29,460 nucleotides of DNA from Candidatus Babeliales bacterium (lineage in GTDB: Bacteria; Babelota; Babeliae; Babelales; Vermiphilaceae): positions 1 through 29,460 of the forward strand of contig JBIOKB010000009.1 in the NCBI GenBank assembly GCA_044451405.1. The letters run 5' to 3'. The position numbers and the translations under genes were made by a program. A model generated the notes under the pieces. That model did no database searches, was not told where the DNA came from, and saw nothing but the letters and a program-made list of their open reading frames with translations. The stretch's first letter is position 1. The number at the start of each line of letters is the position of its first letter. Positions 28,101 through 28,226 of the stretch are shown piece by piece.

Positions 28101-28128
28101 TTGACATTCTGTGTGATTTTCTTATCAT
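28101..28128 (+). promoter_or_regulatory. Sigma70-type promoter P2
   Basis: TTGACA-N16-TATCAT preceded by an AT-rich UP-like tract. Confidence 0.6.
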
Positions 28129-28134
28129 CGTATA

Positions 28135-28226
28135 AGACCAAAACACGCAGGTCACTTTTACTTAGGCTTCATTACTACTCTCCTTTTTTCCACCGCATTG
28201 ATTTCGATCAGTGCGGTGGTTTTTTT
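28135..28226 (+). ncRNA. Candidate ~90-nt small RNA or attenuated leader with an anti-SD/anti-AUG core
   Basis: Lies between promoter P2 and a strong terminator, has no credible ORF of its own, and contains GCUUCAUUACUACUCUCCUUUU. Not recognised as a known family. Confidence 0.55.
28190..28226 (+). terminator. Strong intrinsic terminator
   Basis: CCACCGCATTGAT-TTCG-ATCAGTGCGGTGG followed by T7. The 13-bp stem has one G-U pair, which fixes the + strand. Confidence 0.92.

Follow-up and report, generated by a model that had tools for sequence, protein, structure and literature searches.

What does the gap of ~300 nucleotides (nt) between the stop codon of recF (27973) and the start of the next gene (28274) encode in a Candidatus Babeliales bacterium (contig JBIOKB010000009.1)? 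The window that we analyzed is this entire 29.5-kb contig, which belongs to a metagenome-assembled genome of the phylum Dependentiae (TM6), 1.02 Mb in size and 95.7% complete. Members of this phylum have genomes of ~1 Mb and are widespread as obligate parasites of protists, and to our knowledge almost nothing is known of their gene regulation. A preliminary description of the window had proposed that the gap holds an undescribed small RNA (sRNA) that represses several messages by pairing with their start regions. By comparative criteria, the element at 28135..28226 on the plus strand is a real sRNA gene with its own promoter and a covarying terminator, and the core of the predicted RNA, which is the complement of a translation start site, is nearly invariant across the phylum.

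Anatomy of the sRNA gene

The main promoter, P2 (28101..28128, plus strand), consists of TTGACA (28101-28106) and TATCAT (28123-28128) separated by 16 nt. It matches the consensus at 11 of 12 positions, is the top promoter-like site across 27000-29460, and predicts a transcription start at ~28135, from which an RNA of ~92 nt would extend to the end of an intrinsic terminator (28190..28226). The terminator comprises a hairpin (28190-28219) with a 13-bp stem, in which 7 pairs are G-C, a UUCG loop, and a run of seven U residues. The hairpin begins 217 nt past the recF stop, in agreement with the ~216 nt given in the preliminary description, and the ~55-nt body noted there measures 55 nt from the predicted start to the hairpin. 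An upstream promoter, P1 (28014..28042, plus strand), was recognized by eye as TTGACA (28014-28019) followed after 17 nt by TACCCT. P1 scores under the threshold of the promoter scan and is absent from its output; an RNA beginning at its predicted start, ~28049, would be ~178 nt long.

In the minimum free energy structure, a variable 5' stem-loop (28136..28153, GACC...GGUC) precedes an unpaired core at 28162..28192, UUAGGCUUCAUUACUACUCUCCUUUUUUCCA. The reverse complement of 28162-28192 reads TGGAAAAAAGGAGAGTAGTAATGAAGCCTAA, and the exact complement of this unpaired stretch is AAAAAAGGAGAGUAGUAAUGAAGCCUAA. As had been pointed out from the window, the segment before the terminator is thus the complement of an idealized initiation region, containing a Shine–Dalgarno (SD) sequence (AAAAAAGGAGAG), a UAGUA spacer, AUG, the second codon AAG, and CCUAA. 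The core offers an accessible C/U-rich seed matching SD regions, its complement being AAGGAGAG...AUG. The fold energy of the sRNA is -26.1 kcal/mol (z = -5.25), which was equaled by 0 of 200 shuffles. Consensus scans of the window returned seven promoter-like sites, against 6.2 +/- 2.6 in shuffled sequence, and one terminator, against 2.2 +/- 1.6. As neither count is above chance, the case for the gene rests on cross-genome conservation and covariation.

Conservation across the Dependentiae

We compared the locus with a panel of 40 related genomes, one per genus and drawn from 17 families, in which the recF-sRNA gap was searched by BLAST. Thirty-one of these relatives match the element at E <= 1e-9, with 77-95% identity over ~65-90 nt, and three more (G027, G030, and G035) match in the core alone, again downstream of recF. 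RecF homologues are present in 36 of the 40 relatives (37 of 41 with this genome included), and those matched over their full length are only 34-55% identical, so that the RNA element is far better conserved than its coding neighbor in the same genomes. Among the 31 strongly matching relatives, 30 have the element downstream of recF, mostly at a distance of 150-400 nt and in one case of 1.3 kb. In relative G023 (C2:593734-602440), ~7.5 kb separate recF and the sRNA gene.

An alignment of the core from this genome and 29 relatives (30 genera) shows that the 29-mer AGGCUUCAUUACUACUCUCCUUUUUUCCA, which runs from AGG to CCA, is unchanged in 28 of the 30 genera and that the 18-mer GCUUCAUUACUACUCUCC is unchanged in all of them, while the hairpin loop and the sequence upstream of the core vary. 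Over a larger collection, the element was matched in 191 of 261 Dependentiae genomes, or 155 of 189 when the high-quality ones are considered, nearly always a short way past recF. The core 23-mer occurs exactly in the genome records of at least 120 species. Among the matches listed, records whose titles name a group mostly name Dependentiae, TM6, Babeliales, or Vermiphilus, and the remainder are labeled only 'bacterium' or bear proteobacterial names that were taken unchecked from the titles.

Families f8 and f17 gave no BLAST match to the element. With the covariance model R1, which scores 96.9 bits on the window sRNA, copies that adjoin recF were found in f8 and similar elements in f17. Both keep only CUCCUUUCUCCUUUUUU and the terminator, and the anti-SD half is therefore the oldest shared part. 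Copy number also varies within the panel: G035 has three tandem sRNA copies downstream of recF (locus L164, C10:12700-13700, reverse strand), each with a terminator hairpin and a T-run of its own behind it; promoter-like sequences upstream of them were recognized by eye. BLAST mostly recovers only the core in the G035 family, and two of the G035 copies have a duplicated CUCC motif (CUCUCCUUUCUCCUUUUUU). Genomes G239 and G085 contain two full sRNA matches each.

Covariation and promoters fix the strand of the gene

For the analysis of covariation we collected 150 candidate loci, from which 7 near a locus end and 19 duplicates were removed to leave 124 distinct sequences. Core invariance is partly built into this set, as 94 of the sequences came from the exact 23-mer scan; the flanks are unaffected. 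Of 1612 cells at the terminator pairs, 99.3% are paired, and two-sided compensatory changes occur at 12 of the 13 pairs. None of 500 shuffles reaches any of five measures of covariation, and when partner columns are slid by 1-3 positions the paired fraction falls to 24-53%. G-U pairing accounts for 134 cells, each of which would turn into an A-C mismatch if read on the other strand. The plus strand is therefore fixed, since the G-U pairs and the U-tail work only in that orientation. Three checks that could have refuted the preliminary description all sided with it, namely a conserved seed, a covarying terminator, and the lack of conservation of a minus-strand mini-ORF (see below).

The promoters are conserved as well. 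TTGAC[AT] with a properly spaced -10 element is found at the P2 position in 99 of the 124 homologues, and P2 scores of at least 10/12 occur in 85 of 124, compared with 2 of 124 for the reverse complement and 13 of 124 for shuffled sequence. The two tandem TTGACA promoters reported for the window are a trait of the family: at 68 of 120 loci, two or more TTGACW boxes lie within 300 nt upstream on the sense strand, with almost none on the other strand. The P1-P2 distance is 80-89 nt in 45 of 60 pairs, with a median of 87 nt, and in the window it is exactly 87 nt (28014-28106). The sequence that separates P1 and P2 is not conserved across homologous loci.

The predicted RNA length in 106 homologues is 71-137 nt (median 105), and the core in these RNAs has a mean unpaired probability of 0.79. 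Their 5' parts differ in sequence and length, with a hairpin often forming. A long P1 isoform that hides the core was considered and rejected, as the unpaired probability of the core is 0.71 in that form, against 0.77 in the short isoform and 0.64 when the extension is shuffled.

The minus strand opens only the mini-ORF (open reading frame) MKPK-stop that had been noted before, at 28158..28172 (ATG AAG CCT AAG TAA, 28172->28158). Its length and stop differ among relatives because the bases after ATGAAGCC differ, and the promoter, U-tail, and G-U pairs favor the plus strand. A minus-strand peptide was accordingly rejected and the mini-ORF judged not to be a gene, which also answers the concern that the start-like sequence is the remnant of a decayed one. 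There is no conserved ORF on either strand at the sRNA gene, and the plus-strand ORF of 68 amino acids (aa) at 28065-28271 spans regions that are variable in sequence and length among relatives.

Predicted pairing with translation start regions

Possible messenger RNA (mRNA) targets were evaluated by pairing the core with 1025 start regions of this genome. Ninety-six of these pair at -18 kcal/mol or better, whereas eight shuffled cores give 31-54 start regions and windows inside genes give 16. Perfect matches of at least 10 nt fall at called starts in 13 of 45 cases, as opposed to 2 of 41 for reversed controls. When every 45-nt window on both strands of the genome was scanned (~136,000 windows), 74 sites reached -24 or better; 18 of them were start regions, which make up an estimated ~3% of the scanned windows. 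In 16 relatives, 16 of 20 near-perfect sites are true ORF starts, mostly of MK... proteins. The 16S 3' tail of this genome is canonical (...CACCUCCUUUC...), indicating that SD-led initiation is in use. A single long target was sought with the 31-mer complement at up to 8 mismatches, and this search found only the sRNA gene itself.

The preliminary description had named four genes of the window as targets. The PI-PLC-like gene at 19848 pairs with the core at -26.4 and ranks 7th of the 1025 start regions, followed by a 288-aa gene at 17891 (-20.7), the histone-like 47-aa gene at 17577 on the minus strand (-20.1), and the downstream secreted gene at 28274 (-19.0). All four lie in about the top tenth, since 101 of the 1025 start regions reach -18, and the PI-PLC-like gene alone stands out. 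The histone-like ORF (17437-17577, minus strand) encodes a protein of nearly all K, R, and A (MAKKRVVRRKKAAAPKRK...) and has the start region AAAAAGGAGA...AUG; a tblastn search with this low-complexity query gave one weak match in the 40 relatives. The suggested link to secreted genes holds as a modest lean, in that 57% of the predicted targets at -18 have signal-peptide-like or hydrophobic N-termini, compared with 38% otherwise (p = 2e-4). Part of this lean arises from the anti-AUG-AAG extension of the core, as AAG and AAA are used more often as second codons in these proteins.

A conserved second RNA complementary to the core

Among the ~136,000 genome windows, the core finds its best non-self partner on contig C25 (~7685->7620, minus strand; locus L167 ~621-686), at a non-coding locus that we call RNA-2. 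The predicted duplex has an energy of -32.3, near-tied with that of a phage tail-fibre site described below. The first ~30 nt of RNA-2, GAGCUAAGAAGGAAUUGUAGUAAUGAAGC, are kept in every genome of the same family (24 of 24) and in 2 further families, and RNA-2 was detected in 111 of the 261 Dependentiae genomes. In all 26 genomes examined, a duplex with the core is predicted (-22 to -36, mean -29.5) that spans nearly the whole invariant core as 13-16 bp, an internal loop, and 8 bp. Within the paired 13-mer of RNA-2, 9 of 10 substituted cells are A-to-G changes opposite U, by which pairing is kept. From these comparisons, RNA-2 is the only conserved complementary partner of the sRNA core that we found.

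RNA-2 is probably transcribed from the proposed minus strand of C25. Conserved upstream boxes, CTTGCA (-35-like) and TAGCAT (-10-like), are 16-17 nt apart. The 5' end forms a stem closed by the downstream sequence CUUAGCUC in 12 of the 26 genomes, one stem is compensatory (GAGUCAAG paired with CUUGACUC), and in 9 of 26 the stem is trailed by a T-rich stretch. A simple search for promoters and terminators came up empty at this locus, and model R1 weakly matches the opposite orientation (22 bits). The ORFs that follow the RNA-2 AUG are 4-67 aa long and unrelated in the 26 genomes, some starting with GTG or ATA. With no conserved small toxin ORF among them, a type I toxin-antitoxin system was rejected. 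We also rejected 16S ribosomal RNA as the partner; the recurring sequence GAATTGTAGTAATGAAGCC looked ribosomal at first, and it belongs to RNA-2 on C25, with the 16S gene located on C40.

A third conserved intergenic element of ~370 nt was observed at loci L195-L198 (genomes G005, G034, G001, and G014), with its motif near position 1501 of L196-L198. It has GCUAAGAAGGAAUUGUAGUAA in common with RNA-2 and contains nested complementary segments. In L196 and L197 it sits between convergent nfo-like and wecA/mraY-like genes, and in several genomes two copies are found 450-1050 nt apart. The four loci gave no Rfam match at gathering thresholds.

Phage copies of the core

The exact core 23-mer is also found in 10 IMG/VR contigs (L240-L249), all of which show translated similarity to C3, a phage-like contig of 39,032 nt that was binned with this genome. 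Genes of C3 have matches on the IMG/VR contigs in phage portal, terminase, and other regions. Sequence overlap between the first and last ORFs of C3 suggests that this genome is complete and permuted. Portal or large-terminase genes are present on four annotated IMG/VR contigs, and neither recF nor dnaN occurs on any of the 10. Model R1 scores 37-65 bits on the phage copies, each of which places its own hairpin after the core, with a T-run in most. Two phage lineages have a promoter-like site whose end lies 6 nt upstream of the core, which predicts a ~60-nt RNA with little besides core and terminator. As phages carry the bare core with a terminator, the core looks like the working module.

C3 itself has only a degenerate sRNA-like element (20252-20337, plus strand; R1 36 bits), right after the stop of a tail-fibre gene (18121-20265) that carries a Peptidase_S74 domain. 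The start region of this gene contains an 18-nt perfect complement of the host core (-32.1), and it is near-tied with RNA-2 as the best site. Regulation of the phages by their own copies was considered and rejected, as five viral records contain no second site within 3 mismatches of 17. Three of these five records are complete (38-41 kb, with direct terminal repeats) and have no integrase, no tyrosine or serine recombinase was found in any of the five, and none of 10 ORFs flanking the phage core on four contigs is a recombinase. We take the phages to infect Dependentiae on the basis of binning and the common core, which falls short of proof. These phage-borne cores, the complementary second RNA, and the phylum-wide near-invariance of 29 nt were not foreseen in the preliminary description.

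A model for sRNA function and its alternatives

We favor the explanation, to which we give an even chance, that 28135-28226 of the window (plus strand) encodes a trans-acting base-pairing sRNA, phylum-wide in the Dependentiae, which occludes SD-AUG regions. Transcription would start from the sigma-70-type P2 and, in many genomes, also from P1 ~87 nt upstream, probably giving a longer form that starts near 28049, and would end at the covarying terminator. The 5' hairpin and the terminator would keep the ~29-nt CU-rich stretch single-stranded, so that it could pair with the SD, spacer, AUG, and second codon AAG of mRNAs and block the 30S subunit from the start site. Many SD-led messages would be translated less as a result, and genes for secreted or membrane proteins would be somewhat overrepresented among them. 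Hfq, CsrA, and ProQ were not found in the 95.7%-complete genome, and long direct pairing may stand in for such a chaperone. RNA-2 would show a start-site-like sequence complementary to the core and would probably set sRNA activity in part, as Yfr2 does with Yfr1.

Several observations weigh against this explanation. No RNA run containing the stretch was listed, and four runs gave only contigs with the conserved core of relatives, which carry no information on transcripts. The start regions came from crude gene calls, and the duplex energies are likewise crude and were computed without target accessibility. No orthologous mRNA target was found, in that unrelated genes account for the 20 near-perfect sites from 16 relatives; five of the relatives' sites have a homologue among the called proteins of this genome, and none of the five is a top-ranked target here. 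The enrichment of predicted sites at start regions lends support to the proposal of a multi-target regulator, and the comparison with relatives speaks against a simple conserved regulon. Target conservation was judged on two candidates only, DUF502 and the PI-PLC-like gene. The DUF502 start region pairs at -25.8 in this genome and at a mean of -9.2 in 26 relatives, close to the recF control (mean -9.8), and only 2 of the 40 relatives have the PI-PLC-like gene. Seeds of known multi-target sRNAs measure ~8-15 nt, and an invariant stretch of 29 nt that includes the UAGUA spacer exceeds what target pairing normally explains. This spacer also differs from the genomic pre-start consensus, in which position -1 is mostly T or C, as judged from the crude calls. 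Finally, RNA-2 is present in only 111 of the 261 genomes, yet families that lack it keep the core.

The conserved partner suggests an alternative, which we consider unlikely, in which the main conserved job of the two RNAs is mutual neutralization, with one sponging the other and mRNA pairing being secondary or incidental. This proposal overlaps the favored explanation and differs only in which interaction carries selection. It draws on the rank of RNA-2 as the strongest non-self partner and on the prediction of the duplex in every genome examined, together with the substitutions that keep pairing, the confinement of RNA-2 conservation to its first ~30 nt and not to its small ORFs, and the precedent of Yfr1/Yfr2, as far as it is described in the part of the source used here (PMC6778093). 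Set against it are the narrower distribution of RNA-2 relative to the sRNA (111 versus 191 of 261 genomes), with families f2, f5, f6, and f14 keeping the core without RNA-2, and the imperfect complementarity of two RNAs that are both conserved. The orientation of RNA-2 is also insecure, given the empty promoter/terminator scan, the opposite R1 match, and a stem that is clear in only 12 of 26 genomes, and AUG-to-GUG changes would equally fit a conserved start codon. A different reason for the invariance, and one that we regard as improbable, would be that a conserved protein or the ribosome itself binds the stretch, either as its site or as a decoy, for example through mimicry of the 16S 3' end or titration of an RNA-binding protein, its likeness to an anti-start site being secondary. 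Invariance of 29 nt including the spacer, in genomes whose RecF proteins are 34-55% identical, is closer to contact with a fixed macromolecule than to pairing with drifting targets. The failure to find a conserved mRNA target, the CU-rich 16S 3' end (...GGATCACCTCCTTTCGAGG), and the retention of the bare core by phages agree with such a role. However, no candidate protein is known, the core differs from the 16S tail (CUCUCC versus CACCUCC), and the part most deeply conserved in divergent families is the repeated CUCC anti-SD motif, which fits SD pairing. The enrichment of predicted sites at start regions would also have to be a coincidence.

The phage copies raise the question of whether the common core is a phage attachment site, with an attP that rebuilds the 3' end of the sRNA gene as happens with tRNA genes. 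Phage and host do have an exact 21-23-nt core in common that is followed by a replacement terminator in the phage, and some phage contigs leave no room for a promoter. We nevertheless consider this very improbable, and it is largely refuted by the absence of a recombinase from all five viral records, three of them complete, and from the 10 flanking ORFs. Within this genome the Phage_integrase family is represented only by a pair of XerC/D-like genes (C9 and C54), two phage lineages have a promoter 6 nt before the core, and conservation in 191 genomes would be left unexplained. We give almost no credence to the simplest alternative, that the element is only the recF terminator or 3' untranslated region, or else the remnant of a decayed minus-strand gene that keeps its ribosome-binding site and ATG. 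The element does lie downstream of recF on the same strand, and the minus strand does read as a perfect SD-ATG, but the comparison refutes both versions. Conserved promoters lie between recF and the core, the element is ~7.5 kb from recF in G023, and the phage copies have no recF nearby; a remnant would decay and not remain identical in 28 of 30 genera, and the minus-strand ORF has neither a conserved length nor a conserved stop, and the G-U pairs of the terminator form on the plus strand only.

Beyond the favored explanation, one can imagine an RNA-only initiation switch, a conjecture that we consider doubtful. Here an anti-start-site sRNA would be opposed by a start-site mimic (RNA-2, perhaps with the third element) to set an SD-led, largely secretory proteome, and lytic phages would have co-opted the switch through a minimal copy of the core. 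Such a switch may be tied to infectious or replicative stages, and the phage copy may run from promoter to terminator. The invariance of the 29 nt would then reflect a joint constraint from start regions, partner RNA, and phage pressure.

Relation to known small RNAs

The whole window has no Rfam match at gathering thresholds, as had been expected for an undescribed RNA. The best match below threshold is LhrC (RF00616), with 25.8 bits (E = 0.089) where the gathering threshold is 110. RsaE/RoxS, Yfr1, 6C, and IhtA are not among the 10 Rfam matches at E <= 10 in 27900-28350; Rfam release 15 presumably holds models for all of them. Literature searches, covering titles and abstracts of the matches listed, found no published Dependentiae sRNA. 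In the part of the Chromulinavorax genome paper covered here, the only RNAs apart from ribosomal and transfer RNAs are ffs, rnpB, and ssrA (PMC6561590). We conclude that the element represents a new sRNA family, one that most probably works like known anti-SD sRNAs. Its unusual traits are the length and constancy of the core, the fixed double promoter, the link to recF, and the copies in integrase-less phages.

By analogy of network layout, the nearest known system is Yfr1/Yfr2. The Yfr1 motif is roughly 11 nt, whereas the Dependentiae core is 29 nt and spans the SD, spacer, AUG, and second codon, and there is no sequence or Rfam relation between the two. The Dependentiae sRNA further differs in being linked to recF and in having two promoters at a fixed spacing. 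Like the sRNA described here, Yfr1 and Yfr10 are, in the portions of the sources used, phylum-wide, with a single-stranded UCCU-containing motif between stem-loops, many predicted or measured targets, and extra copies that have the motif only (PMC6778093; PMC2190773). The conserved motifs of Yfr1 and Yfr2 are nearly complementary, and Yfr2 is seen to bind Yfr1 and to outcompete an mRNA target for it, in a layout that resembles the sRNA and RNA-2 (PMC6778093, same portion). Phage copies of Yfr1 go unmentioned in that portion of the source, in contrast with the phage-borne core found here (PMC6778093).

RsaE/RoxS of the Firmicutes is likewise an sRNA of wide taxonomic range; it differs in giving no Rfam match at E <= 10 and in having short C-runs, where the RNA described here has a single long CU-rich stretch that extends over the start codon as well. 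The unpaired C-rich motifs of RsaE/RoxS pair with several mRNAs at their SD regions, and no hub protein is known to take part. As with the proposed role of RNA-2, RoxS is under an RNA sponge, RosA, according to the parts of the sources used (PMC4409812, PMC6158497, PMC8216469). LhrC of Listeria, the best weak Rfam match, is ~100 nt long and has a CU-rich motif of the UCCC/CUCC type before and in its terminator. LhrC is multicopy in Listeria, as the sRNA is in G035 with its three tandem copies. The score below gathering makes the window sRNA a non-member of this family, and the phyla are unrelated. IhtA of Chlamydia comes, like our system, from an obligate intracellular bacterium that undergoes a developmental cycle, and in the portions used it is described as blocking translation of a histone-like protein at its start region (PMC3469542, PMC4355289). 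The histone-like 47-aa gene of the window has a matching start region, with a predicted energy of -20.1; IhtA is confined to Chlamydia and gives no Rfam match here. AgvB and AsxR of enterohemorrhagic Escherichia coli prophages are a further case of phage-borne small RNAs tied to a host sRNA network, as described in the part of the source used (PMC4104026). They are sponges complementary to host sRNAs and reside in prophages, whereas the copies described here are same-sense cores in integrase-less phages.

If the favored explanation is true, this would be the first regulatory RNA for the Dependentiae and one of the few phylum-wide sRNAs; we know of few others conserved across a whole phylum, for example Yfr1, 6C, and RsaE. 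Its seed is unusually long and unchanging, and reads as the negative of the contacts of an initiating ribosome, namely the anti-SD, the CAU anticodon, and a CUU anticodon. With a candidate partner RNA and a family of phages that bear copies of its core, it would make a compact model in which to study riboregulation without a chaperone and the interference of phages with RNA-based control in the host. The 23-mer could also be used as a specific metagenome marker of Dependentiae and their phages.

Genes upstream of the sRNA gene

The upstream neighbor of the sRNA gene, recF (26894..27973, plus strand), is kept in relatives. It is the last gene of the order proS, xerD-like recombinase, dnaN, recF (23370-27973), in which dnaA is not directly upstream of dnaN. 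In the same stretch, the proS stop codon overlaps the xerD start.

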